From Candidatus Marinacidobacterium sp. (GTDB taxonomy: Bacteria > Acidobacteriota > Vicinamibacteria > Marinacidobacterales > Marinacidobacteraceae): DNA of 64,000 bases. A program made the position numbers and the translations under genes. Positions 37,061-58,042 of the stretch are shown here, in pieces. The notes beneath the pieces were generated by a model. That model saw nothing but the letters and a program-made list of their open reading frames with translations. It was not told the origin of the DNA and did no database searches. The DNA is taken from positions 2,616,582-2,680,581 of the forward strand of contig CBDHFO010000017.1 in assembly GCA_965262645.1 (NCBI GenBank). Direction: 5' to 3'. The number at the start of each line of letters is the position of its first letter. Positions within the stretch are counted from its first letter, which is position 1.

Positions 37061-37678
37061 ATGACAACGAAACCCGGTGACGGACCAGGCACCCACCAGG
37101 AGCGCATGGCGGCGCTCCAGGCCGAAGTGCGGAAGAAGCGCGCCACCGCCCGCGATCCGGGGCGGGGGCTCGTGCTGGTCCACACCGGGGACGGGAAGGG
37201 CAAGTCCAGTTCCGCCTTCGGGGTGATCGCGCGGACGCTCGGTTGGGGTCGGCGGGTCGGCGTGGTTCAGTTCATCAAGGGCAACTGGAAAACCGGTGAG
37301 CGTCAGTTCTTTGGCCGTTTCCCGGAGCAGGTGGTCTGGCGGACCCTGGGTGAGGGATTCACCTGGGATACCCAGGACCGGGCTCGTGATGTCGAAGTCG
37401 CCGAAGCCGCGTTCGCCGCCGCGCGGGAGATGCTCGTTTCCGGCGATTTCGACCTCGTCGTCCTCGACGAGATCAACGTGGTGATGAGCTTCGACTATCT
37501 CGGCTGCGACGCCGTCCTCGCTGGCCTGAAGGCGCGCGCCGCGCGCACGAGCGTGATCCTGACCGGGCGCGGCGCCCTCCCGGAGGTCATGGACTACGCC
37601 GATCTGGTCACCGAGATGCGGGAGGTGAAGCATCCCTTTGCGGCCGGGATCAAGGCCCAGCGCGGGATCGACTACTGA
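37061..37678 (+). CDS. cobO: cob(I)yrinic acid a,c-diamide adenosyltransferase
   Basis: GLVLVHTGDGKGKSSSAFGVIARTLGWGRRVGVVQFIKGNWKTGE and DLVVLDEIN are CobO/BtuR signatures. Confidence 0.85.
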   Translation: MTTKPGDGPGTHQERMAALQAEVRKKRATARDPGRGLVLVHTGDGKGKSSSAFGVIARTLGWGRRVGVVQFIKGNWKTGERQFFGRFPEQVVWRTLGEGFTWDTQDRARDVEVAEAAFAAAREMLVSGDFDLVVLDEINVVMSFDYLGCDAVLAGLKARAARTSVILTGRGALPEVMDYADLVTEMREVKHPFAAGIKAQRGIDY

Positions 37679-37844
37679 CGGCCGAGACCGGGGATCCGGG
37701 TTGCCGCACCGCCGCCGGGCGCCGCGGCGCCTGCGGAGCCGGGCGACCAGACGGGCGGATTCTCTTCCTGTGGTGTCTTCACGGGTCCGCAGCGGGCGGC
37801 CGGTGGGCCAGAATTGCGCCCGTGCCTCCGGTCGCCCCGATTTC

Positions 37845-38609
37845 ATGAGCGAAAACCTGTCGGTGCGGGGCATCACCGTGACCGCGGGAGGCAGTGCGCT
37901 CGTTCGCGACGTCTCCTTCGACCTCGCCCCGGGGGAGTTCATCGCGCTCATCGGCCCGAACGGGGCCGGCAAGACCACCCTGCTGCGCGCCGCGCTGGGT
38001 CTGCTGAAGCCCACCCGGGGGCAGGCGCTTCTCGGGGGCCGGGACATTCGGCGACTCGCGCCGCTCGAGCGGGCGCGGCGGGTTTCCTATCTTCCGCAGA
38101 CGCGGCCGCTCGTCTGGCCCCAGGCGGTGCGGGACGTGGTGGCGCTCGGACGCTTTGCCTACGGCGTGGTCCTCGGCCGGCTGTCCGGACCGGACGCCGA
38201 GGCGGTGGATGCGGCGCTCGGGGTCTGCGACCTCGTTCACCTCAAGGATCGTTCCGCCGCGACCCTGTCCGGTGGCGAACGCGCGCGAATGCACTGCGCC
38301 CGGGCGCTGGCCGCCGAAGCGCCGCTCCTGGTTGCCGACGAGCCGGTGGCGTCGCTCGACCCGCGCCACCAGTTCGAGGTGATGGGACTCATTCGGGATT
38401 TCGTGAACCGGGGCGGCGGTGCGCTGATCGTGCTGCACGACGTGGGGCTCGCGAGACGGTTCGCGGACCGGTTCCTCTGGATGAAGGACGGGAAAATCGT
38501 TGCCGACGGCTCCGCCGCGGAGACCCTCGCGCCGGAACGCATGGAGTCCGTCTTCGGGGTGCGCGCCCGCGTCGAGGGCGACACCGTCGCGATCGAGGGG
38601 CCGGTTTGA
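37845..38609 (+). CDS. ABC transporter ATP-binding protein (iron-siderophore/cobalamin type, BtuD/FecE-like)
   Basis: Walker A GPNGAGKTT, signature LSGGERARM, Walker B LLVADEP. Confidence 0.85.
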   Translation: MSENLSVRGITVTAGGSALVRDVSFDLAPGEFIALIGPNGAGKTTLLRAALGLLKPTRGQALLGGRDIRRLAPLERARRVSYLPQTRPLVWPQAVRDVVALGRFAYGVVLGRLSGPDAEAVDAALGVCDLVHLKDRSAATLSGGERARMHCARALAAEAPLLVADEPVASLDPRHQFEVMGLIRDFVNRGGGALIVLHDVGLARRFADRFLWMKDGKIVADGSAAETLAPERMESVFGVRARVEGDTVAIEGPV

Positions 38610-39466
38610 GGACGCTGGTCGCAGCGGCCGTCCTCCTGCTGCTGGCCGCGGATCCCGGCGCCGCCGAAGATCCCGGCGCGGCCGAAGATCCCGGCGCCGC
38701 CGAAAATCCCGGCGCCGCCGAGGGGACCAAACCCGCGCGGATCGTGAGCCTCGACTACTGCGCGGACCAGTTTGTGCTCAAGCTGGCCGACCGCGACCGG
38801 ATCCTCGCGGTGTCCCCCGACGCCGGGAAGAGTTTTTCCTTCATGCGCGCGGCCGCCGAAGGTCTGCCCCGCGTGCGCCCACGGGCGGAAGACGTCTTGC
38901 CCCTCGGGCCCGACCTGGTGGTCCGTTCCTACGGCGGGGGTTCCAACATCGCCGCCTTCCTGGATCGCGCCGGGGTCCGGATCGCGCAGGTCGGGGTTGC
39001 CGAGAACCTGGCCGGGGTGAAACGTGTCCTGCGCGAAATGGCGCACGCGCTGGGCGAGCCGGGGCGGGGGGAGGCGCTCGTTTCGGAAATGGAGGAGCGG
39101 GAGGCCGCGCTTCGCCGCCGGCCGGGGACGGAGACGATCCTGTACCTGACCCCCTCCGGGATCACTACCGGCCCCGGAACCCTCGTGCACGAGATGTTGC
39201 GCGCCGCTGGTTTTGTGAACTTCCAGCGCGAGCCGGGATGGCGGCCCCTGCCTCTCGAGCGGCTTGCCTACGAGCGGCCCGATCGGGTGGCGCTCGCCGT
39301 CTTCGGCAACGATGCGAGCCGGGTCGAGGCCTGGAGCGCGATGCGCCATCCGCTCGTGCGGGCACAACTGCGGGACTTGCCGGTGACCTCGATTCCGGGC
39401 GCCTGGACCTCCTGCGGTGGGTGGTTCCTGCTCGACGCGATGGAAGCGCTGGCAGCGGGCGAATGA
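38606..39466 (+). CDS. periplasmic substrate-binding protein (BtuF/FecB-like)
   Basis: TTG overlaps the previous stop. Signal LRTLVAAAVLLLLAA, three DPGAAE repeats, then the cluster-A binding-protein pattern (RIVSLDYCADQFVLKL, PDLVV). Confidence 0.7.
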   Translation: MRTLVAAAVLLLLAADPGAAEDPGAAEDPGAAENPGAAEGTKPARIVSLDYCADQFVLKLADRDRILAVSPDAGKSFSFMRAAAEGLPRVRPRAEDVLPLGPDLVVRSYGGGSNIAAFLDRAGVRIAQVGVAENLAGVKRVLREMAHALGEPGRGEALVSEMEEREAALRRRPGTETILYLTPSGITTGPGTLVHEMLRAAGFVNFQREPGWRPLPLERLAYERPDRVALAVFGNDASRVEAWSAMRHPLVRAQLRDLPVTSIPGAWTSCGGWFLLDAMEALAAGE

Positions 39467-40452
39467 GCGGTCGCCGGCTCCTGGTCCTCCTGGCGGCGGC
39501 CGGGGCGGCGGGGCTCTTTCTCGCGTGCCTGCTCGGTGGGACGCCGCTCTCGCCCGGCCGGGTGCTGGCGGCGCTTCTGGGGCAGGCGAGCCCGGGCGAC
39601 CAGCTCGTGGTCTGGCAGATCCGTCTGCCGAGGGCGCTCGCCGCCTTCTGCGTTGGCGGAGCGCTCGGCGTGAGCGGCGCGGCGCTTCAGGGGCTGCTCC
39701 GGAACCCACTGGCGGAGCCGGGGGTCCTCGGGGTTTCGGCGGGCGCCGCGCTCGGCTCCACCGTGGTGATCTATTACGGGCTCGCCGGCGCCTGGCTCTG
39801 GGCGGTGCCGGTGGCGGCGGTGGTGAGCGCGCTCGCGGTGACCGCGCTCCTCGCGCTCGCGGCGAGCCACACCCGCTCGGTGGTCACCTTGATCCTGATC
39901 GGGGTCGGGATTTCGAGTTTCGCCGGCGCCGTGATGTCCCTGCTCCTGAATCTCGCGCCGAACCCCTTCTCGCTCGCGGAGATGATCAACTGGACGCTCG
40001 GTTCGGTGGCGAACCGGAGCTACGAGGATCTGCGGCTCGCGGTGCCGCTGATGGCGGTGGGGGCCGCGATTCTCTTCCGCTACCGGCGGGGGCTCTCGGC
40101 GCTGACCCTCGGGGAGGAGGCCGCGAGCGGCGTCGGACTGGATCTTCCCCGGCAGCGGATCGCGGTGGTTGTCGGGGCCGGACTCGCTGCCGGCGCGTCC
40201 GTGGCCCTCGCCGGAGTGATCGGCTTCGTGGGGATCGTCGCGCCCCACATCGTCCGCCCGCTGGTGGGATACGACCCCGCCCGCAGCCTCGCTCCCTCGG
40301 CCCTCCTGGCGGGAGCCATGCTGGTCTTCGCGGACATCGGCGTCCGGCTCCTGCCCACCGCGGTGGAGCTGAACCTCGGGGTGGTGGCGGCACTCTTCGG
40401 TGCCCCCGCCTTCATCTGGATCGCCATCCGCCAGCGCCCCCCCGCGGATTAG
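39463..40452 (+). CDS. FecCD/BtuC-family ABC permease
   Basis: ATG overlaps the previous stop (ATGA). IRLPRALAAFCVGGALGVSGAALQGLLRNPLAEPGVLGVSAGAALG is the FecCD signature. Confidence 0.85.
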   Translation: MSGRRLLVLLAAAGAAGLFLACLLGGTPLSPGRVLAALLGQASPGDQLVVWQIRLPRALAAFCVGGALGVSGAALQGLLRNPLAEPGVLGVSAGAALGSTVVIYYGLAGAWLWAVPVAAVVSALAVTALLALAASHTRSVVTLILIGVGISSFAGAVMSLLLNLAPNPFSLAEMINWTLGSVANRSYEDLRLAVPLMAVGAAILFRYRRGLSALTLGEEAASGVGLDLPRQRIAVVVGAGLAAGASVALAGVIGFVGIVAPHIVRPLVGYDPARSLAPSALLAGAMLVFADIGVRLLPTAVELNLGVVAALFGAPAFIWIAIRQRPPAD

Positions 40453-41249
40453 CAAGGAACCAAGGACCGCCAGGAGCGCAAGGAGCGCAAGGAGCGCCGG
40501 TCTTCAGACCGGCATCGCGGCCGCAGGCCGCGAAACTCCGGCTCTTATCGACCCCCATTACGTGGACCCAACCGGGGACGGCGCAACACCCTCCCGGGCC
40601 AACGCAAACAGTCAGGAGCGCCAGGAGCGCCAGGAGCGCCGGTCTTCAGACCGGCATCGCGGCCGCAGGCCGCGAAACTCCGGCTCTTATCGACCCCTAT
40701 TACGTGGACCCAACCGGGGACGGCGCGACACCCTCCCGCGCCAACGCAAACAGTCAGGAGCGCCAGGAGCGCCAGGAGCGCCGGTCTTCAGACCGGCATC
40801 GCGGCCGCAGGCCGCGAAACTCCGGCTCTTATCGACCCCCATTACGTGGACCCAACCGGGGACGGCGCGACACCCTCCCGGGCCAACGCAAACAGTCAGG
40901 AGCGCCAGGAGCGCCAGGAGCGCCGGTCTTCAGACCGGCATCGCGGCCGCAGGCCGCGAAACTCCGGCTCTTATCGACCCCCATTACGTGGACCCAACCG
41001 GGGACGGCGCGACACCCTCCCGGGCCAACGCAAACAGTCAGGAGCGCCAGGAGCGCCAGGAGCGCCGGTCTTCAGACCGGCATCGCGGCCGCAGGCCGCG
41101 AAACTCCGGCTCTTATCGACCCCCATTACGTGGACCCAACCGGGGACGGCGCGACACCCTCCCGGGCCAACGCAAACAGCCAGGAGCGCCAGGAGCGCCA
41201 GGAGCGCCGGTCTTCAGACCGGCATCGCGGCCGCAGGCCGCGAAACTCC
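40453..41249 (+). repeat. tandem array, 142-bp unit x about 5.6
   Basis: The core GGAGCGCCGG recurs at 40491, 40633, 40775, 40917, 41059 and 41201 (period exactly 142). Units are about 97-100% identical. Each unit is (CAGGAGCGC)x3, a double hairpin, then about 70 nt. Confidence 0.9.
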
Positions 41250-41505
41250 CACCACTAACCGCGAAGAAGCGCGGGGACGGCCAGGGAACGCCGACCTCTG
41301 GCCAGTTCTCCCGGTGGGGGCCGGCACGCGCTGCGCGCAGCGCAGCGAAATCGCGGTTCGCGTGACCCGCGTAACCCACAAACCGCCGGCCCGCATCGCC
41401 GCCACCGAGATTACACCTCAACCCCAACAGTGCCATACACTGCCGTGACGACATTACACCAACATTACATCGGAGATTACAGCCTCCGACGACCACATAA
41501 CCACC

Positions 41506-42255
41506 TTGATCCCGCGCGGCGCCAAAGGAGTTGTCCTCGGGACAATTCTCGCTTCCGCCGCGGTGGCCTCCGTCTCCTCGACGGCCCCGCAAGAGACCTG
41601 GCGGGGCCTCCGCGTAGCTCCCGAAGAGCGTTGCACCCGTTACGACTCGGACGACTACCGCTACTCGCAACGGGTCGAAGACGCCATCATCGCGGACCTC
41701 GGCGGGATCTACTCGCCCTATACGGGGGAGTGGTTTGACACGAAGCGGGAGACCGACATCGAGCACCTGGTGGCCCGTTCCGAGGCGCATGACAGCGGGC
41801 TGTGCGCCGCCAGCGCGGACACCAGGCGCCGGTTCGCCAATGACTCGCTGAATCTGACCCTCGCAAGTCCGGCGGTGAATCGGCACCAGAAGAACGACAA
41901 GGACGCGGCCGAGTGGCTGCCGGAAAGGAACCGGTGCTGGTTTGCGAGTCGTGTCGTCCAGGTACGACGGAAGTACGACCTCACGATCGACCGGCGAGAG
42001 GTCGGGGTCCTGGAAGGCCTGCTGTCGGGATGCCGTTCGGTAGCGATGGTCCCTCCTGGGTCGGGCCGCGCGCCAGCTAACCGATCGAACGCGGAACCGG
42101 ACGCGCGACGCCCATCTGATCACCAGACCGGATGCGGGCCTTTCGCCAACTGCACGGCGCTCCGTCGGGTGCACCCACGCGGGGTCCCACGAGGGCATTG
42201 CGCCTATGCCAGCAAGATGGACCGGGATCGAGACGGTTGGGCCTGCGAAAGATGA
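41506..42255 (+). CDS. secreted HNH/DUF1524-type nuclease with C-terminal excalibur domain
   Basis: TTG start and signal-like VVLGTILASAAVASVSS. DIEHLVARSEAHDSG...NLTLASPAVNRHQKNDKDAAEWLP (DUF1524 HNH). C-terminal CTALRRVHPRGVPRGHCAYASKMDRDRDGWACE (excalibur). Confidence 0.7.
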   Translation: MIPRGAKGVVLGTILASAAVASVSSTAPQETWRGLRVAPEERCTRYDSDDYRYSQRVEDAIIADLGGIYSPYTGEWFDTKRETDIEHLVARSEAHDSGLCAASADTRRRFANDSLNLTLASPAVNRHQKNDKDAAEWLPERNRCWFASRVVQVRRKYDLTIDRREVGVLEGLLSGCRSVAMVPPGSGRAPANRSNAEPDARRPSDHQTGCGPFANCTALRRVHPRGVPRGHCAYASKMDRDRDGWACER

Positions 42256-44246: not shown

Positions 44247-44477
44247 CGGTCTGCTGATTCCTGGATCTCTTCGTGGGCGGCGTCGGGATGCGGCGGGGAC
44301 GCCGGCACCCGGTGGAGCTGAGGGCAGGGGACCCGCTGGACTTCTGGCGGGTGGAGGCGTGGGAGGAAGATCGCCTCCTGCGGCTCTCCGCGGAGATGAA
44401 GGTGCCCGGCCGGGCCTGGCTCCAGTTCAAGGTGGAGCCGGCGGAGGGCGGCAGCCGGATCACCCTAACGGCCGTTT
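44247..44477 (+). pseudogene. DUF2867-domain gene fragment F1
   Basis: LDLFVGGVGMRRGRRHPVELRAGDPLDFWRVEAWEEDRLLRLSAEMKVPGRAWLQFKVEPAEGGSRITLTAV. Homology stops abruptly at 44477. Confidence 0.6.
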
Positions 44478-44545
44478 GCACCCGCGCCAACACCTAATCG
44501 GTGTCAACAGCGTCCGTGCTCATCGTACTCCCTCTATCGGTCCGG

Positions 44546-45604
44546 TCACTTCCAGACCTGAGCTGATTCGGCACCATAGAACTGCAGGAACCGTGCGTCA
44601 CGGGCACTTCCAGCCCGGGCTAGTGCGGTAGCTCGTATCCGCAGGGTCGCGTTGCTTGAACTATCTGGATCTCCATGTAGGCCAACGTAGAGCCTTCGGA
44701 TATTTCCACTCTTTATTCTCGTGAGTACGTGGTCATCACTGTCATCGAAGCTATGTCCAAGAACAAACAATGTGTCCTGCTTCCTTCGCATGCGCCGAGT
44801 GAAATGGCGAAGGGAATTGTTCAAGTATGGACTCCTCTTGATACGCCGTAGTTTTTGGACGCTCGTCCCCTCGGCCACGAAAAGAGGGAACATATCTTTT
44901 CGGATCGCAGCCCTGATCTGGTCCATCAGCGGAAGTTTGCCTCCACTCCACTTGTACTTAACGAGTTCCGTACCGGTGTCTAGGAGGTGTAGGGCACCGT
45001 GTAAGTAGTGGATCCTCTGTTTGTTTGTTGTCGTGCTGCCGATCCAAACCAGGTGGTCGCTATTGGGTTCAGGAGACTTTCCGAATCCATCATTCGGCAC
45101 GAGTGAAACCGTGTTTGGCTTCGCCCGGTCCCACATTAGAGCCCAGTAGAGAAGAAGGTCATAGTTGAGCGTGTACACATGGCCCTTCTGATCTCCTCCG
45201 ATAAAGTTAGACAGAAAGTGTTTGCATCGCTGAAAGCGTTGGCCTCCTATTTCGTACGGGTCGGCCGGGTGATGTTGGACGATCGTCTTGATCAGAGTCT
45301 CTCGAATTTCGGAGGCATCTTGTCGGAGGCTCGACGGAATAGCGTGCGAGTGGTTGTACAGTGCGACAAGCCGAGCCGCCTCCTCCAAACTGCGAATACC
45401 GTGTTCGAAGTCCTTGGTGTCTATTGCGTTGAATACACGGTATATGCGCGACGAATCATCTGGAAAAGCCTTTTCGAATAGGGATCTGTATGTAAAGATG
45501 TTCTTGTTGCAGGCAATACTGAAGCCATTGCCGAGTAGGAGGTGCCGAGATCCGGACCCCTCTGAGTCAGCGAGTGCCTGGTCAAACGAAAATATCTGGG
45601 TCAC
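44546..45604 (-). CDS. DUF4917-like (SIR2-superfamily-like) protein
   Basis: 352 aa; N-terminal HLLLGNGFSIACN (the GxGxS motif of the SIR2_2/DUF4917 type). Markedly lower GC than its surroundings. Confidence 0.65.
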   Translation of the reverse strand: MTQIFSFDQALADSEGSGSRHLLLGNGFSIACNKNIFTYRSLFEKAFPDDSSRIYRVFNAIDTKDFEHGIRSLEEAARLVALYNHSHAIPSSLRQDASEIRETLIKTIVQHHPADPYEIGGQRFQRCKHFLSNFIGGDQKGHVYTLNYDLLLYWALMWDRAKPNTVSLVPNDGFGKSPEPNSDHLVWIGSTTTNKQRIHYLHGALHLLDTGTELVKYKWSGGKLPLMDQIRAAIRKDMFPLFVAEGTSVQKLRRIKRSPYLNNSLRHFTRRMRRKQDTLFVLGHSFDDSDDHVLTRIKSGNIRRLYVGLHGDPDSSSNATLRIRATALARAGSARDARFLQFYGAESAQVWK

Positions 45605-45872
45605 TTATAATTGACTTGGAGGGCGTCGGCGGTACTGGAGGTTTCAGATTTTGGGGCGGGTATCCAGCAGCCGCGAGGAGGTCAGCCGGAGAGCACGGGG
45701 AAGTGTTGGCGATGCGTACGTTCGGAGCACGCCGGCGCCGCTCAGGCGCGACCGAACTCGCCGGGCGTTCTGTAGAGTCAGAGGGCGCTTGAACGGGATC
45801 AGGCCTAAAATCACGCGGCCAAACCCGACGTAATTCTACAACGCATCCGTCACACGCGAAATCTTTCGGCCT

Positions 45873-45960
45873 GCGACTCGGGCAGCGGGCGCTCCTCTGC
45901 TGGTACGGGCTCTACCCGATCCACTGGCTGATCTTCCGGCGGATGCTGCGGAGAGTGGCG
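45873..45960 (+). pseudogene. DUF2867 fragment F2 (continuation of F1 after the 1.4-kb insertion)
   Basis: RLGQRALLCWYGLYPIHWLIFRRMLRR matches PLGLGGLLYWYGLYPIHWLIFRRML of the other copies. Confidence 0.6.
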
Positions 45961-45993
45961 GCGGCAGGACCCGCCCCGTGTAACAGTCCTGAC

Positions 45994-47847
45994 ATGCCCA
46001 GATCCGTCACGAACCCGCTCCCGTGCCTTCTCGCCGTAGCCTTGGTCGCCGCGGGCGCGGCCGGCGCCGGCCAGGAAACCCGGGAGCCCCGGATCGTGGT
46101 GGATCCCGACTACCTCGTCAGCCGGGATGGCGACCGGCCTCACGTCGAGATCATGGCGGCCGCGAACCCGCGCAATCCACGCAACCTGCTGGCCGGCGCC
46201 ATCACCTTCACCCGTCCCGACGGCGGGGCCGCCACCAAGGCCTACGTCAGCTTCGACGGCGGCGTTCAGTGGGACGACGTCACCTTCCCGGAGCAGAAGG
46301 AGACGGGTGGGGGCGATCCCCAGGTGGCGTTCACCGCGGCCGGCACGGCGATCTTCGCCACCCTCGCCACCCGGGCGGATGAGACCGGCCGCACGCGGGC
46401 GTTCCTTCACACCTACCGGTCCGAAGACGGAGGACGGACCTGGTCGGCTCCCTACGACCTCGGGGCCTCGTACGACCACCCCATGCTGGCGGCCGATCAG
46501 ACGACGGGGCGCTTTGCCGGACGGTTGTACATGAGTGTCCTCTACGGCCGCGAATACAGCCTCGGCGTCTTCCGCTCGGAAGACGACGGCAGAAGCTGGA
46601 TCGGCCCGGTGAAGTTCCTGGACGGCGCCGGCGAGCGAGGGCTCAACGTGGACCCCACGGTGGTGTTTCACGACGGGGCCGTCATGGTTCCCTTCGTGGA
46701 CTTCCCGTCCAACCCCGAACAGACCGCCAACTGGACCGAATCGCGACTCTGGACGGTCGTTTCGACCGACGGTGGGGTGACGTTCTCCGAGCCGAAGCCG
46801 GGCCCGGTGAAGATGACGGGCGAGGAGACGCGCCTGGCGAGGGAGGGGACACCGCGTTTTCGGGGCGGCTCCTGGACCATGCTCGCGGCGGACCGCAGCC
46901 AGCGTTTCCGGGATCGCGCCTACGCGGTCTGGCCCGACTACTCGGAGGGGCTTCCGCGCGTCGTGATTTCCTGGTCCGGCGACCGCGGTTCCACCTGGAG
47001 CGACCCCGGGCCAGTGGCGTCCCCGGGGGGTCCGGATGTCCAGCAGTTCCAGCCCGCGGTCGCCGTCAACCGGGACGGCGTGCTGGGGGTAAGTTGGTAC
47101 GACACCCGGCAGGCTCCGTCGCGGTTCGCCTTCCACGAGTACTTCGCGGCTTCCTTCGACGGCGGCGAGACGTTCACCTCACCGATCCAGGTTTCGGGAT
47201 CGCTCTCCGAGCCCCTGGGCTCCGGCCATCTGGTGCCCGCTCCGGTGACCTTCAGCGGAACCGAAGGAGAGCTGCGGGTCGCGCTGATCTCCGCGGCTTC
47301 GCGCTGGGTGAATGGTGGCGACTACCTGGGTCTTACCACGTCGTCCGACGGGCACTTCCACCCGGTCTGGGCCGACGCGCGGTCGGGCGCCTATCAGGTG
47401 TACACGGCGGCGGTACGGATCGTGGACGGACCGCCCGCGCCGCCGGCGACGGCCGGGGAACCGGTGGACATCACCGGGCGGATCGAACTCGTGAACGACC
47501 CCGGAAGCTATGACGCCGAGACCGGAGTGGCCGACCTCTGGATCCGGCTACGGAATGTGTCGGCCGCTCCCCTCGCGGGACCGATCGAGGTGGAGATCCG
47601 CAAGTTCGGGAGCGGCATGGGAGACATGTTTTCGGAACTCGCCCCGGAGGTCCTCAACGCAGATAACGGACGGCGCGGAAACGGCGCCGTCTTCCGCTAC
47701 GACGAAGTGCTCGGCAGCGATGGCGTCCTCCCTCCCGGCGGCGTCAGCGGCGCGGTCCTCTGGCGTCTCAAGCTCGCGGAGCCGGTCCGCATTCCCAATC
47801 TGCACCTCTACATCACCGGCCGCGAGGTGGTCGCGGAGCCGCGGTAG
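45994..47847 (+). CDS. secreted BNR/Asp-box six-bladed propeller (exo-alpha-sialidase-like), copy 1
   Basis: Signal CLLAVALVAAGAAGAG. Asp boxes SFDGGVQW, SEDGGRTWS, SEDDGRSW, STDGGVTFS, SGDRGSTWS, SFDGGETFT. Confidence 0.75.
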   Translation: MPRSVTNPLPCLLAVALVAAGAAGAGQETREPRIVVDPDYLVSRDGDRPHVEIMAAANPRNPRNLLAGAITFTRPDGGAATKAYVSFDGGVQWDDVTFPEQKETGGGDPQVAFTAAGTAIFATLATRADETGRTRAFLHTYRSEDGGRTWSAPYDLGASYDHPMLAADQTTGRFAGRLYMSVLYGREYSLGVFRSEDDGRSWIGPVKFLDGAGERGLNVDPTVVFHDGAVMVPFVDFPSNPEQTANWTESRLWTVVSTDGGVTFSEPKPGPVKMTGEETRLAREGTPRFRGGSWTMLAADRSQRFRDRAYAVWPDYSEGLPRVVISWSGDRGSTWSDPGPVASPGGPDVQQFQPAVAVNRDGVLGVSWYDTRQAPSRFAFHEYFAASFDGGETFTSPIQVSGSLSEPLGSGHLVPAPVTFSGTEGELRVALISAASRWVNGGDYLGLTTSSDGHFHPVWADARSGAYQVYTAAVRIVDGPPAPPATAGEPVDITGRIELVNDPGSYDAETGVADLWIRLRNVSAAPLAGPIEVEIRKFGSGMGDMFSELAPEVLNADNGRRGNGAVFRYDEVLGSDGVLPPGGVSGAVLWRLKLAEPVRIPNLHLYITGREVVAEPR

Positions 47848-47879
47848 CTCGCGCGGATCGGCGGTCGGCTCACGCACCG

Positions 47880-48131
47880 AGCGCGATCCAGTGGTGGGTC
47901 GAGGCGCTCGTGAAGGACCGACTACTCCGGTTGCAGGCGGTGACGCAGGTCCCAGGACGAGCCTGGCTCCAGTTCAAAGTGAAGCCGACGGAGGGCGGCA
48001 GCCAGATCACCCAGACGGCCGTTTTTGATCCGCTCGGACTGGAAGGGCTCCTCTACTGGTACGGGCTTTATCGGATCCACTGGCTGATCTTTCGGCGGAT
48101 GCTGCGCGTAGTGGCAGCGCGGAGGTGTTGA
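47880..48131 (+). pseudogene. DUF2867 fragment F3 (divergent)
   Basis: KDRLLRLQAVTQVPGRAWLQFKVKPTEGGSQITQTAVFDPLGLEGLLYWYGLYRIHWLIFRRMLRVVAARRC*. Confidence 0.6.
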
Positions 48132-48594
48132 GCGGCTTCGACCCCTCCTCGAATGAAGGAGCCCTTCCTGAGTCGCCTCGGTCACCACCTGGATCTGGGT
48201 GCGTACCCTGTTACGTCAGCAAGAGCCCCGACACCCACGTCCATAGGCGAGATGTGTTGCGCCGCCGCCGCCCGAGGGCTACTCGCATGGATCCGAATCA
48301 GGTCGCTCAGCGGCCATCACCAAGCACCTAGCCTGTGGATGACGCGTAGGGTCTGACGTCAATACATCGAAGACCCGAGCGGCTGATCGGCCCGGTACCG
48401 AGAGGCGAGTAACGAAGCACAGCGCAACATGTGAGCGGCACCTTGTGCCCATGCAGTGCAGATAAGTCGGCCGTCCGCCGCTACTCAACGTACAATAAAC
48501 ACGCTCCGGTGGGCGTGGAGCCTCCCATCACGACAAAGACACCGGGTGGGCGGCATGTGGCCTCCCTCACACTGGTTCGAGAGGCTACCGAAAC

Positions 48595-49581
48595 ATGGCG
48601 ACAGCTGATCACGTCAAAGCGCTAGTCCAAAGCCATGCCGCCGGCGACGAGGAACGCTTCTATGCCGTTGCCATGCAGGTGGCCGCGCAGGCTGCCCGCC
48701 AAGGGCACGTGCGATTCGCGAGAGACCTTCGCACTTTGGTCGATGAGGCGAAGAGCCGCTGGTCGGTAGCTGAATCTGGGCAGCAGACGAGGCCCATCCC
48801 GATAGTACAGCCGCGCGGAGAGTTGGCGGGACTACTTTCCGCAGAGTTTCCAAAACTCCGAATGTCCGACATGGATTTGGACTTAGCCGTTCGATCCAAG
48901 ATTGACCGGGTACTGCTAGAGCAGAGACAGCGCGCGAGACTTCTAGGACACGGGATGTCCCCGTTGCGGAAGACCCTGCTGGTCGGGCCTCCAGGTACAG
49001 GAAAAACCATGACGGCTAAAGCTCTCGCCGGCGAATTGAGTGTCCCGCTATTCACGATTCAACTCGACGGTCTGATCACCCGGTACCTGGGTGAGACTGC
49101 CGCCAAGCTTCGTCTGGTATTTGACGCGGTTCAGAGCAGCCGCGCCGTCTATCTGTTTGACGAATTCGACGCCTTGGGCGGAGACAGGACGGTCCGAAAC
49201 GAAGTAGGAGAAATTCGCCGGATTCTGAATTCCTTCCTTCAGTTTCTGGAGAATGATGAATCGGACAGCATCATAATTGCGGCTACTAACCACCCGAGCC
49301 TATTGGATGTTGCCCTCTTCCGTAGATTTGATCAGCTCATCAAATATAGCCTGCCATCTGATGCAACCACTAGGAAGCTGATCTGCCGCTCATTGAGGCT
49401 ACTGGGTGCGTTGCGGGTCGATTGGAGAGAAGTCCTCGCTGCCGCCGCAGGCTTGAGTCATTCCGATGTCGCGAGAGCATGCGAACAGGCGCTCAAGGAA
49501 TCCATTCTTGATGAGCGAACGTTCGTCGATACAGCACGGCTCGTGGACGCGCTGAATGTCAGGCAAACACTCTACCGTTAA
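48595..49581 (+). CDS. AAA+ ATPase, IetA-like
   Basis: Walker A GPPGTGKT, Walker B VYLFDEFD, sensor region IIIAATNHP. It lies 17 nt upstream of the S8 protease gene. Confidence 0.75.
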   Translation: MATADHVKALVQSHAAGDEERFYAVAMQVAAQAARQGHVRFARDLRTLVDEAKSRWSVAESGQQTRPIPIVQPRGELAGLLSAEFPKLRMSDMDLDLAVRSKIDRVLLEQRQRARLLGHGMSPLRKTLLVGPPGTGKTMTAKALAGELSVPLFTIQLDGLITRYLGETAAKLRLVFDAVQSSRAVYLFDEFDALGGDRTVRNEVGEIRRILNSFLQFLENDESDSIIIAATNHPSLLDVALFRRFDQLIKYSLPSDATTRKLICRSLRLLGALRVDWREVLAAAAGLSHSDVARACEQALKESILDERTFVDTARLVDALNVRQTLYR

Positions 49582-49598
49582 AGCGAGACTCTCTTTCC

Positions 49599-52142
49599 GT
49601 GCCGTCCAAACGCAACCGTAGGCATATCCTCGTTCCGAGGAAACCGGCGACCGAGCCCTACCAGCCTCACCCACGAGACATCGATCCGCCAAGCCATCCG
49701 GAGCCGCCGGATAGACGGCGCCACGCGGCAACACTACGTGGCGCTCTACTACAAGCGCAGCAAGAAGGGCTAAACCGGCGCCTTGCCAGCCCGATATCCG
49801 TGGGCGGCGCCCAGCCGGGCCTCTACATAGAGTTTCGCAGCTTACCGGGCGGGGGGCTCAAGCTGGAATCATTGGAAGATCGGCGTTGCGGGATCGAGCT
49901 GGTGGCGGTCCAACGCGCTCGAATGCACCAAGAGGACGCACCTGTCGAGATCGCTACGGTTTTCGTGCCAGATGGTGCACTTAAGAGATTCTTCACCCGT
50001 TTCCGCGAATACGCGGAAGAACTCACCGGGACGGGGCAGCCTCGACACCGGGAAATGGTGGACCGTATTGCTGGTCTCAGGAGAGCAACCCTGCGCGCGC
50101 TGTGGACGGACGCGAGTGATGTCTATCCGGCGGAAGACGAGACAATGTGGTGGGAGGTGTGGCTGCGACGTCAAGACGGGAAAGAGGTAGCTAGGCTGGT
50201 TGAATTCGCAGAGCAGTCTGGGCTCCGCATTGGCGATCGACACCTAGGGTTTGCGGAGCGCATTGTAGTGCTTGTTAGTGGCTCCGTCGGTCAGCTTTCG
50301 GGATCGTTGGACGTTCTGGGTGACGTGGCTGAGGTGCGAAAAGCGAAGGAAAGCAGCGCCTTCTTTGTGAACGCCGACCCGGACGAAGAGGCGGATTGGC
50401 TCGTCGACTTGAAGAGGCGAGTTCAACGAGCAGAACAGGAAGCACCCGCAGTTTGTCTGCTAGATACGGGCATTACACGCGGACATCCGCTGCTAGTGGA
50501 TCTTGTGAGACCTGAGGACGCGATGGCAGTGGATCCCACGTGGGGCGGGCACGATGACGGAGGGGGTTCAGCTGCTATAGGCCACGGTACGCAGATGGCA
50601 GGCTTGGCCGCATACGGAGATCTCACATCGGTGCTATCCGGGACGGGCCCTGTCTATTTGCGGCACGTCCTGGAATCGGTGAAGATCCTGCCGCCGAGGG
50701 GTCAAACTCCGCGGCAGCTGTACGGGGCGGTCACGGTACAGGCAGTAATGCGCCCGGAGGAGATGACTCCGGGCCGGCGGCGCGTTTTTTCTATGGCCGT
50801 GACGGCTGCTGACGATCGAGATCGTGGCCAGCCCACGTCGTGGTCAGCGGCGATCGATGCGCTTGCGGCCGGGCGTGCGTTCGACTCGACGGCGAAGGGG
50901 CTGACCTATCTTGATTCCGCAGAGGATGGCGCCCAGCGGTTGTTCATACTCAGCGCGGGAAATGTTCCGTCGGTGCGGATTCAGAAGGATCACCTGGGCC
51001 GTAGTGATCTAGAGCCTGTGCACGACCCGGCACAGGCGTGGAACGCACTGACGGTGGGTGCGTTCACGGAAAGAGCAACGATGCAGTCGATAGGACATGG
51101 AAACTGGGCACCGATAGCTTCGGCCGGCGAGTTGTCTCCGTGGAGCACGACCTCACTGACTTTCGAGGAGCGTTGGCCCAACAAACCAGACCTTGTCTAC
51201 GAGGGCGGCAATGTTGCATCAGATGGACAGAACATTGAGGAGTCGAATCCAGACTTGTGTCTGCTCTCGACACACTATAGGCCAACCCAGAGAGCCTTTT
51301 GCTTGTCATGGGCAACCAGTGCTGCTGCGGCCCAAATCGCGAGAATGGCGGCGGTCATCAGTGCCGACTACCCAGAGTTTTGGCCGGAAACTATCCGAGC
51401 ACTCTTGATTCACACGTCGGAGTGGACTCGCGCCATGGGCAGCCATTTGAATCCGGGGAGCGGCAAGAACGCGAGGGCTAGGCTGATTCGCAGATATGGC
51501 TTCGGGGTGCCGCGCCTGGAAAGAGCCTTGCGCAGTGCGAACGATAGTCTCACTCTGATTTCCCAGGCCAGCATGCGGCCCTTCGTCAACGGCAAGATGC
51601 ATGAGATGCATTTGCATGAGCTGCCGTGGCCTAAGGAGGTGTTGAGGGAGCTGGGAGACGAGGAGGTCACGCTCCGCGTGACCCTGTCATACTTTGTGGA
51701 ACCGAATCCAGGGCGACGAGGTTGGAAGAAACGGCATCAGTACAGCTCACACGGATTGCGGTTTGATTTGAAGCAGCCTACGGAGACTGTAGATGACTTC
51801 CGCAAGCGGCTGAACAAGCTAGCCCTGGGAGAGAAGGAGAAGAAGCCGCGAACAGGAGGGGGTTCCTCCGAATGGGTTGTCGGTGAGGTCGCACGGAGCA
51901 AGGGCTCGGTGCATTCTGATCGCTGGAAGGGAACAGCAGCAGATTTAGCGGAGCGAGGAGTGGTGGGAATCTACCCGGTGTCGGGATGGTGGAAGGAGCG
52001 CCGAAGCCACGGCGCGACCGAGGGAAGAGGTCGATATGCACTGGTTCTCTCAATAGAAACGGCGGCGGTCGGCGTGGACATTTGGACGCCGGTAGCTCTT
52101 GAGGTTGGCGTTCCGGTGGAAGAGGAAGTCAGCGTCAGCTAA
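49599..52142 (+). CDS. S8 (subtilisin-like) serine peptidase, IetS-like
   Basis: Catalytic triad contexts CLLDTGI (Asp), GHGTQMAG (His) and SWATSAAAAQIA (Ser). 847 aa. Confidence 0.75.
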   Translation: MPSKRNRRHILVPRKPATEPYQPHPRDIDPPSHPEPPDRRRHAATLRGALLQAQQEGLNRRLASPISVGGAQPGLYIEFRSLPGGGLKLESLEDRRCGIELVAVQRARMHQEDAPVEIATVFVPDGALKRFFTRFREYAEELTGTGQPRHREMVDRIAGLRRATLRALWTDASDVYPAEDETMWWEVWLRRQDGKEVARLVEFAEQSGLRIGDRHLGFAERIVVLVSGSVGQLSGSLDVLGDVAEVRKAKESSAFFVNADPDEEADWLVDLKRRVQRAEQEAPAVCLLDTGITRGHPLLVDLVRPEDAMAVDPTWGGHDDGGGSAAIGHGTQMAGLAAYGDLTSVLSGTGPVYLRHVLESVKILPPRGQTPRQLYGAVTVQAVMRPEEMTPGRRRVFSMAVTAADDRDRGQPTSWSAAIDALAAGRAFDSTAKGLTYLDSAEDGAQRLFILSAGNVPSVRIQKDHLGRSDLEPVHDPAQAWNALTVGAFTERATMQSIGHGNWAPIASAGELSPWSTTSLTFEERWPNKPDLVYEGGNVASDGQNIEESNPDLCLLSTHYRPTQRAFCLSWATSAAAAQIARMAAVISADYPEFWPETIRALLIHTSEWTRAMGSHLNPGSGKNARARLIRRYGFGVPRLERALRSANDSLTLISQASMRPFVNGKMHEMHLHELPWPKEVLRELGDEEVTLRVTLSYFVEPNPGRRGWKKRHQYSSHGLRFDLKQPTETVDDFRKRLNKLALGEKEKKPRTGGGSSEWVVGEVARSKGSVHSDRWKGTAADLAERGVVGIYPVSGWWKERRSHGATEGRGRYALVLSIETAAVGVDIWTPVALEVGVPVEEEVSVS

Positions 52143-52234
52143 GAATCTGAACGAAAATCTAGGACGGATCGATTGGCGAGCGGCTGGCGCGCCGCGATGC
52201 CGAGTTGGTGATCGGGGTGCGTTTGCCTGACCGC

Positions 52235-52342
52235 GCCTAGCGGTAGCTTCTCGGGGAGGCGCTTCCAGCGCGTAGAGATGTAAGCGGTACGACCGTCACT
52301 CTATCCGGGCGCTCGTAGCCAAACCCCGTACCGGTCACCACG
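52235..52342 (-). pseudogene. 3' remnant of a DUF4143-type ATPase gene abutting the IS256 end
   Basis: LVVTGTGFGYERPDRVTVVPL compares with VVVTGTGYGYERPDGVTVVPV at 63629-63700. DNA identity is about 80% over about 60 nt. Confidence 0.5.
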
Positions 52343-52343
52343 A

Positions 52344-53731
52344 GAGCTATGACCGAAAGTGGGTGACGGCGAGAGAAGGGGGTGGCGTATCGTGGGAGTA
52401 ACCAACCTTCCACATCTCCAAAGAGGAGTGATACGCCATGACGGAGAGTACCGTTGTTTTCCTTCCCTCAGCAGAGGGAGTTGAGGACCCGCTGACGGAG
52501 GTTCTGCGAGCGGGGGCCCGGCAGTTGGTGAGGCACGCGGTGGAAGCGGAGGTGGCGGCGCTGCTGGCGGCCTACGCCGATCATCGGACCGAGACCGGCC
52601 GTCGGCGCCTGGTGCGTCACGGGCATGGCCCGGAGCGGGAGATCCTGACGGGGATCGGGCCGGTTCCAGTGCGGCGGCCGAAAGTACGGGACCGCGGAGG
52701 CGGGGGGGAGGATCGGATCCGGTTTTCCTCGACGATCCTGCCCCGTTTCGCGCGCCGGACGCGCTCGTTGGACGCGGCGCTGCCGACGCTGTATCTGCTG
52801 GGAGTGTCGAGCGGGGACTTCGGGGAGGCGCTGTCGGAGCTGGTGGGTCCGGGGGCGTCGGGGCTGTCGCCGGGTGTGATCGGTCGTCTCAAATCGGCAT
52901 GGGAGGCGGAGCACGAGCGTTGGCGTCTCCGGGATCTCTCGAGACGGCGGTATGTCTACGTTTGGGCGGACGGGATCTACCTTCAGGGTCGGCTGGAAGA
53001 CGAGAAGCAGTGCGTTTTGGTGTTGATCGGGGCGACGCCGGAGGGCCGGAAGGAACTGCTGGGGTTCCAGGCGGGGTTCCGGGAGAGCGCTCAGAGCTGG
53101 CGGAAACTCTTGGAGGATCTGAAGGGGCGTGGCCTCACGATCCGCCCGGAACTGGCGATCGGGGACGGGGCTCTCGGCTTCTGGAAGGCGCTGGACGCGA
53201 GCTTCCCCCAGACGCGCCGCCAGCGCTGCTGGGTGCACAAAACCGCAAACGTGTTGAACGCGTTGCCGAAGGCCCGGCAGCGGAACGCGAAGCAGGACCT
53301 GCACCAGATCTGGATGGCGGCGGGCCGCGCCGCGGCGGAGAAGGCATTGGACACCTTCGCCGCCAAATACCAGGCCAAGTATCCGAAGGCGGTCACCTGC
53401 CTGACCAAGGACCGGGAGGAGCTGCTCGCGTTCTACGACTTCCCGGCGGAGCACTGGCAGCACATCCGGACCACGAACCCCATCGAGAGCGTCTTCGCCA
53501 CAGTCCGGCATCGCACCGTTCGCAGCAAGGGCTGCCTCTCCCACCAGACGGCGCTCGCGATGGTCTTCAAGCTGGTGACCGCAGCCAGCAAGACCTGGCG
53601 CCGCCTCAACGGCTATGAAAAGTTGCCCCGGGTCATCCAGGGCGTCAAATTCACCAACGGCATTCCGGCCGACGAAACCGAAACCCGCGCCGCCGCCTGA
53701 TCATGTCGTCACCCACTTTCGACCATAGCTC
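52344..53731 (+). mobile_element. IS256-family insertion sequence
   Basis: Imperfect terminal inverted repeats GAGCTATGACCGAAAGTGGGTGACG (left) and CGTCACCCACTTTCGACCATAGCTC (right). No clear target duplication seen. Confidence 0.8.
52438..53700 (+). CDS. IS256-family transposase
   Basis: 420 aa; EVLRAGARQLV..AVEAEVAALL, YVWADGIY, RQRCWVHKTANVLNALP, TTNPIESVF. Confidence 0.85.
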   Translation: MTESTVVFLPSAEGVEDPLTEVLRAGARQLVRHAVEAEVAALLAAYADHRTETGRRRLVRHGHGPEREILTGIGPVPVRRPKVRDRGGGGEDRIRFSSTILPRFARRTRSLDAALPTLYLLGVSSGDFGEALSELVGPGASGLSPGVIGRLKSAWEAEHERWRLRDLSRRRYVYVWADGIYLQGRLEDEKQCVLVLIGATPEGRKELLGFQAGFRESAQSWRKLLEDLKGRGLTIRPELAIGDGALGFWKALDASFPQTRRQRCWVHKTANVLNALPKARQRNAKQDLHQIWMAAGRAAAEKALDTFAAKYQAKYPKAVTCLTKDREELLAFYDFPAEHWQHIRTTNPIESVFATVRHRTVRSKGCLSHQTALAMVFKLVTAASKTWRRLNGYEKLPRVIQGVKFTNGIPADETETRAAA

Positions 53732-54008
53732 CGCCGTTCCCAAGGAGCGCCGGTCTTCAACGGGCCCAGTGCACTTCGCGCAGCCGGCCGATCCTGTCCC
53801 GGTCCCGGACCGTCGCCCATTCCCGCTCTTCAGACGCCTCCCTGGCGTAGAGAACGCTCAGACCCGTCATCAATCTTGGCTTTTACGATATGTCGCTCCG
53901 CCTTCTAGCCGTTCTCGGACGGTTCGTTTTGCCCCGACCTGGTGCCGGACCGTCCCGTTCCCTCGCGACACCCCGCCCAATCTTCGACCTTCCTGCCCAT
54001 CCAACGCG

Positions 54009-55361
54009 TCACGCCTCAAATCGATAGCCCTTGCCCAGCACGACTTCATCCCAGTTCGGGAGCGCTCCCTCCCTCACCATGTGCAGTATTGCCCCCCGGC
54101 AGAACTCCTGGGCTCTACCGACCGTGCCGGCATCCTCCTCTCGGTTTTTTCTCTTTAGGCCCCTGCCATGCAGGACACTGGATGCCAGTCCATACCCCTT
54201 CCGGAGGGTATCGAAACAGGCTTTGCGCTCGTCATAAGTCTCCCCGAGAAGCCATGCCCCTCTTGTAGCGATACGAAACTGAATTTCAGACGAGTTTCCG
54301 GAGTCGCCGGCCAGCAGCACCGATTCCAGAGCTATTCGCAGTTCCACAAGCTGTTCCTCAAGCGGTCTGCCCCGTTTCGATCTCCTCCACCTGGCTATCG
54401 CGACATCGAGCGCCGAGAACCTCCTTAGCCGTCCCTCAATTTCCAAGCTTCGCGTGAGTTGCTCGTCTGAGATCGACCGTGGCGACCCGCTGCTCGTCTC
54501 CTGCAACGACGCCCCATGGCCTGGGTTAAGGAAGAATGCGTCGATGTCCCCGTAGTTCGACCAACCTCGAAACCAATCCACGTTGTTGTCGATTTCGAGC
54601 GACATCGCCCGGCAGAGACCTGCGACGGACACCTGCGACAGTTCCGGATTCCTGATTCGGGGCCGCGGAACATCTTCGGAAAACTTCTTCTTTTCCGCAT
54701 CGGGGCAATAAAGCGCCGGTCCGACCTCGGTTTCGAGCGACAGCATCGCCCGCCGGCCATACTGCTCGTACTTGATGTCACCAGCATCCAGTTGGACATA
54801 AAGGGATCTCGGAAACTCCTCGCCGTTGCCCGACAGTGTTTCCAGAACGAGCCCGTTCCTGGGCGATATCCGTCCGTCGTTGAGCACCCCCTTGAGCAGG
54901 AAGCATTGCCAGACCGGGATGGGCTGCCCTTGGACCCAGCCGCAAAATGTTGCCGCGGTCCGTTCCGGCCCGATTCGGGCCGATGCCAGTACGAGTATCC
55001 GGGCATAGTCTTCGACCGAGGGCAGCCGAGGAGAAGCCGACGCTCCCGTCAGCCTGTAGAGACCGTTGCCGACTGCGCCCGTGTCGGACGCCCGATAGGG
55101 CGCAAGCATCGGAGCGATCGCCGAAACGAGACCGGCGAGCTCGCCTTCGGGCACGGCGACCGAATTGGCGCCGTTAAGCCGGTAGTCATGATGACGCTTC
55201 CCGGAATAGAGTTCGTGCATCTCACTCGCACCGAAACTCCGTCTCCAGACATTGCGGAACTGCGTCCGGCGGAGGGCCCATTGGATACATTGCTCCAGGC
55301 GTTCACGCTCCACGACGTTCGTCTCCTTGCGCCATGCCGGCGTCTCGCGCGGGAACGTCAT
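54009..55361 (-). CDS. Apea-like HEPN-domain protein (ApeA-like)
   Basis: The C-terminal 130 aa, LRIALESVLL...EIQFRIATRGAWLLG...LRKGYGLASSVLHG, fit the HEPN helix pattern. However, the RSxxxH position reads ASSVLH. Confidence 0.55.
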   Translation of the reverse strand: MTFPRETPAWRKETNVVERERLEQCIQWALRRTQFRNVWRRSFGASEMHELYSGKRHHDYRLNGANSVAVPEGELAGLVSAIAPMLAPYRASDTGAVGNGLYRLTGASASPRLPSVEDYARILVLASARIGPERTAATFCGWVQGQPIPVWQCFLLKGVLNDGRISPRNGLVLETLSGNGEEFPRSLYVQLDAGDIKYEQYGRRAMLSLETEVGPALYCPDAEKKKFSEDVPRPRIRNPELSQVSVAGLCRAMSLEIDNNVDWFRGWSNYGDIDAFFLNPGHGASLQETSSGSPRSISDEQLTRSLEIEGRLRRFSALDVAIARWRRSKRGRPLEEQLVELRIALESVLLAGDSGNSSEIQFRIATRGAWLLGETYDERKACFDTLRKGYGLASSVLHGRGLKRKNREEDAGTVGRAQEFCRGAILHMVREGALPNWDEVVLGKGYRFEA

Positions 55362-55480
55362 CGCGACGAGCCGAAACCGGCTTCCCGAATACTATAAATG
55401 CCATGCTATGTAGGCGCCCTGCACCTGTCCGCCGCACCATCCCGGTCAGCGTGTCCTCCACACCGCGCGTACCCACACTC

Positions 55481-55891
55481 CTAAAGCCCCAACTCCATGG
55501 CGTTGGTCCAGGAACCTTCAAAGGTCCAATCGTCGGGAAAGGTTTGCAGACGTGCGCATTCTCTTACTGAAAAGTACCTTACAGAACCGTCTTTTGGTCT
55601 GACTGAATTCTCGCCACCGGGCACTCCGTTGTCACCGGCCTTTGGTGTCTTAGATGGTTCATCCCATTTACTTCCGTCATGACCGGGATAGGCGCGAACT
55701 CCGGGATTCAAAAAGTGATTGGAATCGTCAATTGCAGTTTGTCCCTCTTCTATGGAAGGTAAATCAGATATGGCATCGCGAACTGTACGCCATGGTACTC
55801 CTAATCGGTCTGAGCTCAATGCAGAAACCCTCGCTATTCGGTTCCGCCGCTTGGCGCGCGGTCCCGAGTTCCTCGCCGGGGCCGCTTTCAT
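55481..55891 (-). pseudogene. C-terminal relic of a DNA (cytosine-5) methyltransferase
   Basis: TVRDAISDLP...AYPGHDGS..DEPSKT...RYFSVRECARLQTFPDDWTFEGS (TRD and motif IX). The N-terminal catalytic half and the final QIGNAVP motif are missing. Confidence 0.65.
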
Positions 55892-58040: not shown

Positions 58041-58042
58041 CT

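Follow-up and report, generated by a model that had tools for sequence, protein, structure and literature searches.

We analyzed a 64,000-nucleotide stretch of a Candidatus Marinacidobacterium sp. assembly (GCA_965262645.1, contig CBDHFO010000017.1, positions 2,616,582 to 2,680,581 of the forward strand), hereafter called the window, in which a corrinoid salvage/uptake operon ends with a FecCD-family ABC permease gene and is followed directly by a tandem array of 142-bp units. Tandem Repeats Finder (TRF) places this array at 40471-41249, with 5.5 copies, 98% matches, 0% indels, and a score of 1516. Short AGGA-bearing tags and a module of two GC-rich hairpins make up much of each unit, and the same module recurs between genes, on both strands, in related genomes. 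The array is very probably a head-to-tail amplified cluster of a dispersed, extragenic, palindromic family of non-autonomous elements of marine Vicinamibacteria (Acidobacteriota), which resembles the repetitive extragenic palindromic (REP) sequences and their hairpin-forming doublets (REPINs), or else the miniature inverted-repeat transposable elements (MITEs).

The Array Downstream of the Permease Gene

The core sequence GGAGCGCCGG starts at 40491, 40633, 40775, 40917, 41059, and 41201, and only four positions vary among the five full 142-bp units. A 45-nt core of the module is identical in all six copies and had zero matches in 100 dinucleotide-preserving shuffles. The module of the array, named module A, runs from GGAGCG through hairpin 1 (GCCGGTC-TTCA-GACCGGC), CATC, and hairpin 2 (GCGGCC-GCA-GGCCGC) to GAAACTCC; it is followed by a segment B and by the tags that head the next unit (Table 1). 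Both hairpins, together with a GGAG/CUCC helix that closes them, are present in the minimum-free-energy fold of the unit, and the fold z-scores are -3.0 for the RNA of the 142-bp unit and -5.6 for the DNA of the 56-nt core.

The units are headed by nested runs of the 9-mer CAGGAGCGC, which TRF detects with 3.1 copies each at 40613, 40755, 40897, 41039, and 41179. We counted 20 (A/C)AGGA tags within 800 nt, five of which (AAGGAACC, AAGGACCGC, CAGGAGCGC, and AAGGAGCGC twice) form a leader in front of the first module; the first begins at 40454, leaving a gap of 1 nt to the TAG stop codon of the permease gene (40450-40452). The fifth leader tag, AAGGAGCGC at 40489-40497, has only its first two bases (AA) in the leader and the remainder inside the first module, and the leader run is a degenerate, reiterated 5' tag of that module. 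The original prediction, made from the letters alone, had described a 142-bp period with few substitutions, the same six core starts, 20 tags with five in the leader of the first unit, a beginning directly after the stop codon of an ABC permease gene, and two GC-rich hairpins closed by GGAG...CTCC, and each of these descriptions held.

It had also reasoned that 142 is not divisible by 3 and that the open frames across the array are not coding, and we agree. The long open reading frames (ORFs) through the array have no Pfam match, and the homologous units measure 76, 77, 83, 130, 140, and 142 nt and lie on both strands, so a protein-coding repeat was rejected. A clustered regularly interspaced short palindromic repeat (CRISPR) array was rejected as well, since the "spacers" between the modules are themselves repeated or mutually homologous, and so was a hammerhead or other ribozyme, the CUGANGA...GAAA core being wrongly arranged on inspection by eye.

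A Dispersed Family of Extragenic Modules

The module of the array belongs to a family whose 49-56-nt core reads AGGAGCG, hairpin 1, CATC, hairpin 2, and GAAACTCC; in its basic form, the 5' tag AGGAGCG precedes two GC-rich hairpins and GAAAC. The 26-nt center of the core, CCGGTCTTCAGACCGGCATCGCGGCC, is matched exactly in 65 tiles (8-kb blocks), which come from seven species-representative genomes; these are without exception uncultured Acidobacteriota with the label Vicinamibacteria or Candidatus Marinacidobacterium. For the covariance-model search, already proposed in the original prediction, model R1 of the 56-nt module was built from alignment A1; it gave 213 matches at E<1e-3 in 579 kb, made up of the window and the tiles carrying the module. 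By our approximate gene calls, 150 of the 159 R1 matches of at least 40 bits are intergenic. In the window, five further R1 copies lie outside the periodic array at four other places (Table 1), and the family occupies five loci in these 64 kb. No exact copy of the 26-nt core was present in the JGI metagenomes and IMG/VR sequences scanned, and a conserved downstream 28-mer had no match in the JGI metagenomes. The module is a dispersed extragenic repeat that occurs on both strands in at least seven genomes, and it is not specific to the locus behind the permease gene.

Pairing of the two hairpins is conserved. Over 131 distinct copies, pairing amounts to 99.5% in hairpin 1 and 98% in hairpin 2; changes occur on both sides in 10 of the 14 hairpin pairs, and the observed covariation was reached by 0 of 500 shuffles. 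The alignment used for these counts was fitted to R1 and so favors structure; in the raw sequences, the stem variants GCCGGTG..CACCGGC, GCCGACC..GGTCGGC, and CGCCCGC..GCGGGCG are plainly visible. The two 7-bp GC-rich hairpins within 49-56 nt give the module the palindromic character of REP and REPIN sequences.

Inverted Doublets and the Half-Element of the Array

Of the clusters of the family, 47 are solo modules and 41 are convergent inverted doublets, and divergent doublets are absent; the direct clusters number ten, namely, nine pairs or triplets and a single sextet. The sextet is the array of the window, and no other direct cluster in the sample is as large. The symmetric inverted doublets contain over half of the module copies. 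There are 39 distinct doublets, mostly 225-227 bp in length, with 56-nt arms that are 86-100% complementary and with the tags on the outside; the DNA of a doublet forms one long hairpin (fold z-score -8.5). The predominant form in the related genomes is thus an inverted doublet of ~220 bp with outer tags, folding as a single long hairpin.

Segment B of the array matches the left part of the spacer of such doublets. The first ~105 nt of the 142-bp unit, that is, module A and the start of B up to a conserved GGGGACGGCG(A/C)(A/G)AC, align with the left arm and left spacer of the doublets at our loci L033, L047, and L057, and therefore the unit is a half-element plus tags, multiplied head to tail. 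The remainder of B, CCCTCCCGGGCCAACGCAAACAG, is common to L032 and to a subfamily tandemly arranged at an unrelated locus, L058, of a related genome. No inverted partner of the module was found within the array of the window.

Reiterated Tags

Tandem reiteration of the tag is a trait of the family and is not particular to the locus in the window. Two to four tandem AGGAGCGC(C/A) tags are present in 35 of 125 tagged modules, at independent loci and in independent genomes, and they occur at both outer ends of the doublets, where those on the right side read as the complement GCGCTCCTG. The spread of the reiteration across the family speaks for copying or slippage of element ends as the source of the RAGGA density in the array, and not for an array of protein-binding sites. 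In one genome, at four loci on JAJDUD01 contigs (L013, L020, L021, and L036), we also observed a 21-nt sequence, AGGAGCGCCGGTCTTCAGACC, consisting of the tag and most of hairpin 1, reiterated two to four times before complete modules. The repeated piece is longer here than the 9-mer, but the pattern is alike, and it may be a trace of slippage, or of abortive processing, at hairpin 1.

These findings bear directly on the preferred claim of the original prediction, which saw in the array a possible structured RNA in the 3' untranslated region (UTR) of the operon and compared it with the CsrB/RsmZ sponge RNAs. In that explanation, a CsrA-like protein would be titrated away by binding to the 20 RAGGA motifs or, in a variant, the AGGAG tags would act as Shine-Dalgarno decoys. 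The likeness consists in the many GGA motifs within a few hundred nucleotides, adjoining hairpins. However, the motif is the terminal tag of a repeat dispersed on both strands, half of the copies have it in the complementary form CGCTCCT, and in the predicted folds GGA is never located in a hairpin loop (the loops are TTCA and GCA) but in the 5' tag or the closing helix. Rfam gave no match to CsrB, RsmY, or RsmZ even at E<=10; at that threshold, a search with the array and one doublet returned only chance-level matches, such as Twister-P5 with 15.5 bits against a threshold of 37.6 bits, and the whole window had no Rfam match at the gathering score. A consensus scan found no sigma-70-like promoter sites and no terminator-like site in or around the array, although acidobacterial promoters may differ from the consensus. 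The original prediction had also pointed to a csrA/rsmA homolog as a thing to look for, and none was found by tblastn in ~590 kb (the window and 67 loci, which do not cover the whole genome) with approximate E. coli and B. subtilis CsrA queries. The array is not conserved at the orthologous site of close relatives, and in one of them (L067) this site carries only single GGAGCG tags without any 9-mer runs. We consider a sponge RNA extremely improbable here.

The Same Intergenic Site in Related Assemblies

The site behind the permease gene is occupied by modules in three other assemblies, in each case in a different arrangement. In L066 and L067, the permease (329 aa) is identical to that of the window and the flanks are 96-97% identical, and in L037, which represents a sister species, the flanks are 94% identical. 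Directly after the stop codon, L067 has 4.8 units of 76 bp with another subtype of the module, whose hairpin 2 is GACCGCCGAGAGGCGGTC. L066 contains eight modules with irregular spacing (76, 140, 130, 61...), including two B-bearing units of 140 and 130 bp that share two variant bases with the window, and L037 has two 83-bp units and, in addition, two variants. Since close relatives differ in the composition and the period of their arrays, the interval is a rapidly restructured repeat cluster, with neither the length of the array nor the type of module conserved, and the five near-identical units of the window are a recent, lineage-specific expansion. In all four versions of the site, the modules have the orientation of the operon. 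Tandem clusters with flanking DNA included are found as 5.5 units of 142 bp in the window, as tandem units in L058, and as the 76-bp and 83-bp units of L067 and L037.

The comparison also bears on whether the array, or its copy number, could be an artefact of assembly. A stretch of 780 bp with 99% identity exceeds the length of short reads, and an assembly from short reads could misjudge the number of copies. Nevertheless, the units carry four private substitutions, arrays of the module lie at the same position in three independent assemblies, and L066 shares both the B-bearing units and two of the variant bases with the window, which makes an artefact very improbable.

Comparison with REP, REPIN, and Related Elements

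The original prediction had mentioned an amplified REP-type element as its fallback, and this is the claim that gained support from the dispersal, the extragenic position, the doublets, and the tandem clusters. Like REP and REPIN sequences, such as the bacterial interspersed mosaic elements (BIMEs) of E. coli and the GI-GIII arrays of Pseudomonas fluorescens SBW25, the elements are short imperfect palindromes with an unpaired terminal tag, present in many copies that are almost all extragenic. They are mostly arranged, as in REPIN "HH" dimers, in inverted doublets of fixed spacing that form one hairpin with the tags outside, and they are accompanied by singlets resembling decayed halves and by higher-order tandem clusters with flanking DNA. 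Two studies describe tandem REP/REPIN clusters including flanking DNA in Pseudomonas and other bacteria and, for P. fluorescens SBW25, near-identical tandem units with flanking DNA that have a 184-bp period and contain up to 12 REPs (Bertels & Rainey 2011, PMC3116915; Di Nocera et al. 2013, PMC3733652).

Several points weigh against this reading. The tag is GGAG(CG) instead of the GTAG or CGTC that define the two described REP super-families, GTAG being only sporadic in the modules, as in ..GTAGGAGCG; each arm of ~50 nt has two hairpins and not one. No Y1/HUH transposase of the REP-associated tyrosine transposase (RAYT) type, for which the original prediction had also proposed a search, was found in the window and the 67 loci by tblastn, motif scan, and Pfam searches of module-flanked ORFs. 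The tblastn queries were E. coli TnpA-REP, checked against PDB 4ER8, and an approximate IS200 TnpA sequence; a weak match in L024 (E=0.007) was rejected, because the 464-aa ORF resembles a metallo-beta-lactamase-fold protein and not a transposase. With regard to a classical DDE-type MITE, no direct repeats that could be target-site duplications were found at the outer ends of the 39 doublets, where the flanking 9-mers are mutually inverted. Hairpin 2 has 11 G-U against two A-C mismatches, a bias in small numbers such as one would see if a single strand were important as RNA, and the co-orientation of the modules in all four versions of the site could reflect selection for function and not mere inheritance. 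Finally, the gene calls in the loci, on which the intergenic and strand counts depend, come from our own GC3-based caller and are approximate. The elements further differ from known REP and REPIN sequences in the reiteration of the tag as 8-9-mers, in the purely head-to-tail array of half-elements, and in their acidobacterial host. Given the GGAGCG tag, and with no Y1/HUH transposase found in the ~590 kb covered, we filed the family as REP/REPIN-like or MITE-like.

No RAYT having been found in the DNA covered, the doublets could instead be classical MITEs with terminal inverted repeats (TIRs), moved by the DDE transposase of a parent insertion sequence (IS) and independent of any RAYT. The terminal inverted repeats of 56 nt, the tight length of ~220 bp, and the presence of IS256-type and IS4-type DDE transposases in the window fit such an origin. 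However, the ends of these IS256-type (52438-53700) and IS4-type (61759-63213) elements are unrelated to the module, and target-site duplications are lacking; moreover, each arm itself forms hairpins whose pairing is conserved, as is typical for the substrates of single-strand HUH enzymes, and solo arms and head-to-tail arrays of arms are common. We therefore regard this origin as doubtful. In a broader sense, the elements resemble MITEs such as the Correia, ERIC, and RUP elements in being non-coding, ~220 bp long, and bounded by inverted repeats with long hairpins, and in inserting close to genes, with some copies (window, 9577) supplying the stop codon; unlike MITEs, they show no target-site duplications and have frequent solo arms and arm-only arrays. 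A closer parallel in host may be the RAYT-like "TIRYT" genes with long-TIR repeat families that Di Nocera et al. (2013, PMC3733652) report for the acidobacterium Koribacter versatilis, a member of the same phylum. By description, these TIR families are likewise moderately abundant and bounded by long terminal inverted repeats unrelated to the GTAG REPs, but no TIRYT gene was found beside the modules described here.

Position Relative to Genes and a Possible Role as RNA

Frequently, elements of the family adjoin the stop codon of the upstream gene or provide it. In the window, as in L049 (1658), L002 (3089), and other loci, we observed the stop codon of the upstream gene inside or within a few nucleotides of a module tag such as TAGGAGCG, the stop in the window being at 9579-9581, and 11 of 30 same-strand clusters start at most 10 nt from a stop codon. 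Together with the gap of 1 nt behind the permease gene, this position suggests that the family might be kept as a functional cis-acting RNA of 3' UTRs, namely, as a multi-hairpin barrier to decay, as a terminator or an insulator, or as a precursor from which small RNAs are processed, and not for its mobility. A stable three-way-junction fold predicted for the RNA would suit this role, as would the co-orientation at the four versions of the site and the excess of G-U mismatches, and for REPs elsewhere, Di Nocera et al. (PMC3733652) report a presumed partial role as RNA elements located 3' of coding sequences. However, the family as a whole has no orientation bias, since clusters of uniform orientation lie on the same strand as the upstream gene in 30 cases and on the opposite strand in 24 (p=0.5), and more than half of the copies belong to doublets that are inverted and symmetric. 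The GGAG/CUCC closing helix is only 84% paired with almost no covariation, no T tract follows any hairpin, and neither array length nor module type is conserved among close relatives. A selected cis-acting RNA therefore seems unlikely to us.

Proposed Origin of the Array

In the REP/REPIN-like or MITE-like reading, a half-element consisting of the left arm, the left part of the spacer, and reiterated tags would have come to lie just after the stop codon of the permease gene and would then have been multiplied five to six times. Dispersal of the family may be due to a transposase acting on the hairpins, possibly a HUH enzyme of the RAYT/TIRYT type working on single-stranded DNA, and the array may have grown when directly repeated modules underwent replication slippage or recombined unequally. 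The 9-mer runs could result from slippage at the foot of hairpin 1. Any effect on the host would be that of REP clusters in general, with stable stem-loops at the 3' end of the operon transcript hindering 3'-to-5' decay or read-through into the next gene.

One may also imagine that the site after the permease gene is a privileged "landing pad", at which an active, polar process adds or reshuffles modules in one orientation and the resulting RNA tunes the corrinoid importer. For example, a HUH-type or other single-strand enzyme would act at the reiterated AGGAGCG tag, and the multi-hairpin RNA with its AGGAG tags would tune the importer through decay or as a decoy that binds ribosomes or a protein. 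We consider this scenario quite improbable; if it were true, the array would not be passive repeat DNA but a programmable device in the 3' UTR.

The Operon, the Variant Module, and Other Repeats and Genes in the Window

The gene order of the corrinoid operon (37061-40452) is also seen in L066 and L067, and no cobalamin riboswitch was found in the whole window at the Rfam gathering score. The periodic array ends with a sixth module A that lacks segment B, and a conserved tail separates it from a seventh, diverged module (Table 1). Hairpin 1 of the seventh module contains a 19-nt insertion, CCAGTTCTCCCGGTGGGGG, which derives from a second repeat family. This variant is also present in L066 at 4509, and its insertion-free form is found in L066 at 4693 and in L037 at 3853.

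Table 1. Coordinates of the modules, tags, and neighboring genes in the window; bit scores refer to the covariance model of the module
Feature	Coordinates	Strand	Remarks
BtuR/CobA	37061-37678		corrinoid operon; Pfam
ABC ATPase	37845-38609		corrinoid operon; Pfam
Periplasmic binding protein	38606-39466		corrinoid operon; Pfam
FecCD-family ABC permease	39463-40452	+	Pfam 2e-79; 329 aa; TAG 40450-40452; last gene of the corrinoid salvage/uptake operon
Leader tag run	40454-40490	+	four complete 8-9-nt tags AAGGAACC, AAGGACCGC, CAGGAGCGC, AAGGAGCGC; from the sequence and the TRF 9-mer row 40452-40497
Five full 142-bp units	40491-41200	+	each with 49-nt module A, 73-nt segment B, and 20 nt of CAGGAGCGC tags; matches at 40487, 40629, 40771, 40913, 41055, each 78.8-79 bits
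Sixth module A	41201-41249	+	without segment B; ends the periodic array; match 41197-41252, 81.8 bits
Inter-module tail CACCACTAACCGCGAAGAAGCGCGGGGACGGCCAG	41250-41284	+	conserved; also 3' of modules in L037, L058, L028, L066
Seventh module, diverged subfamily	41285-41357	+	GGAACG tag; hairpin 2 GCTGCGCGCAGCGCAGC; match 41281-41357, 26.6 bits
Excalibur/GmrSD_C protein gene	~41500 to 42255	+	next gene downstream of the array
Solo module copy	9577-9635	+	68.6 bits; its TAGGAGCG tag shares bases with the TAG stop of amidohydrolase gene 7854-9581
Solo diverged copy	9904-9956	+	30.1 bits; same intergenic region as the copy at 9577, upstream of the aminotransferase gene 10065-11276
Solo diverged copy	21134-21191	-	41.8 bits; intergenic
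Solo diverged copy	57826-57882	-	47.3 bits; intergenic

The second repeat family is palindromic, MITE-like in appearance, and unrelated to the module. It has a unit of ~167 bp with the inverted arms GGCCAGTTCTCCCGGTGGGGGC...GCCCCCACCGGGAGGACTGGCC and is located at 13150-13540, 19888-20080, 20530-20740, and 25776-26050, with one tandem of 1.8 copies (TRF period 167, 96% matches); a fragment lies at 41297-41315, and this is the 19-nt piece inside hairpin 1 of the module behind the array, as well as of its equivalent in L066. In-frame 21-nt repeats (GCCCGGATGGAGGCGCTCGAC) occur at 19087-19228, within a coiled-coil-like ORF (18757-19359), and at 7569-7666, and a similar small coiled-coil ORF lies between two doublets in L027 (3244-3645). 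At 16687-18835, two tandem paralogues of ~1.2 kb encode Exo_endo_phos (endonuclease/exonuclease/phosphatase) proteins (16715-17461 and 17926-18672, both on the minus strand) and are 71-83% identical, flanks included.

A low-GC island at 44500-57700, with 50-58% GC compared with ~70%, contains defence-like and mobile genes. These are a DUF4917/SIR2_2 gene (44546-45604, minus strand), an AAA ATPase and subtilase pair (48595-52142), an IS256-type transposase with 44-nt inverted repeats (52344-53731), and a DUF6119 gene (55978-57639, minus strand); an IS4-type transposase lies at 61759-63213. Two paralogous BNR_2 genes of ~635 aa (45943-47847 and 58217-60124) are 99% identical over at least 300 nt, and fragments of a DUF2867 gene stand beside the BNR_2 genes four times, at 44273-44497, 47910-48131, 58010-58236, and 60993-61218.

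Implications

The array behind the permease gene is an ordinary kind of feature, and it reveals no new class of regulatory RNA. It adds a previously undescribed REP/REPIN-like family to the poorly studied, uncultured marine Vicinamibacteria, and this family has the unusual details of two-hairpin arms, a GGAGCG tag in place of GTAG or CGTC, and a tag reiterated as 9-mers. Model R1 can be used for masking the module repeats in these genomes or for their census. Being a natural variable-number repeat, the locus could be put to use as a marker of strains, and the reiteration of the tags may hint at how such elements get cut and copied.

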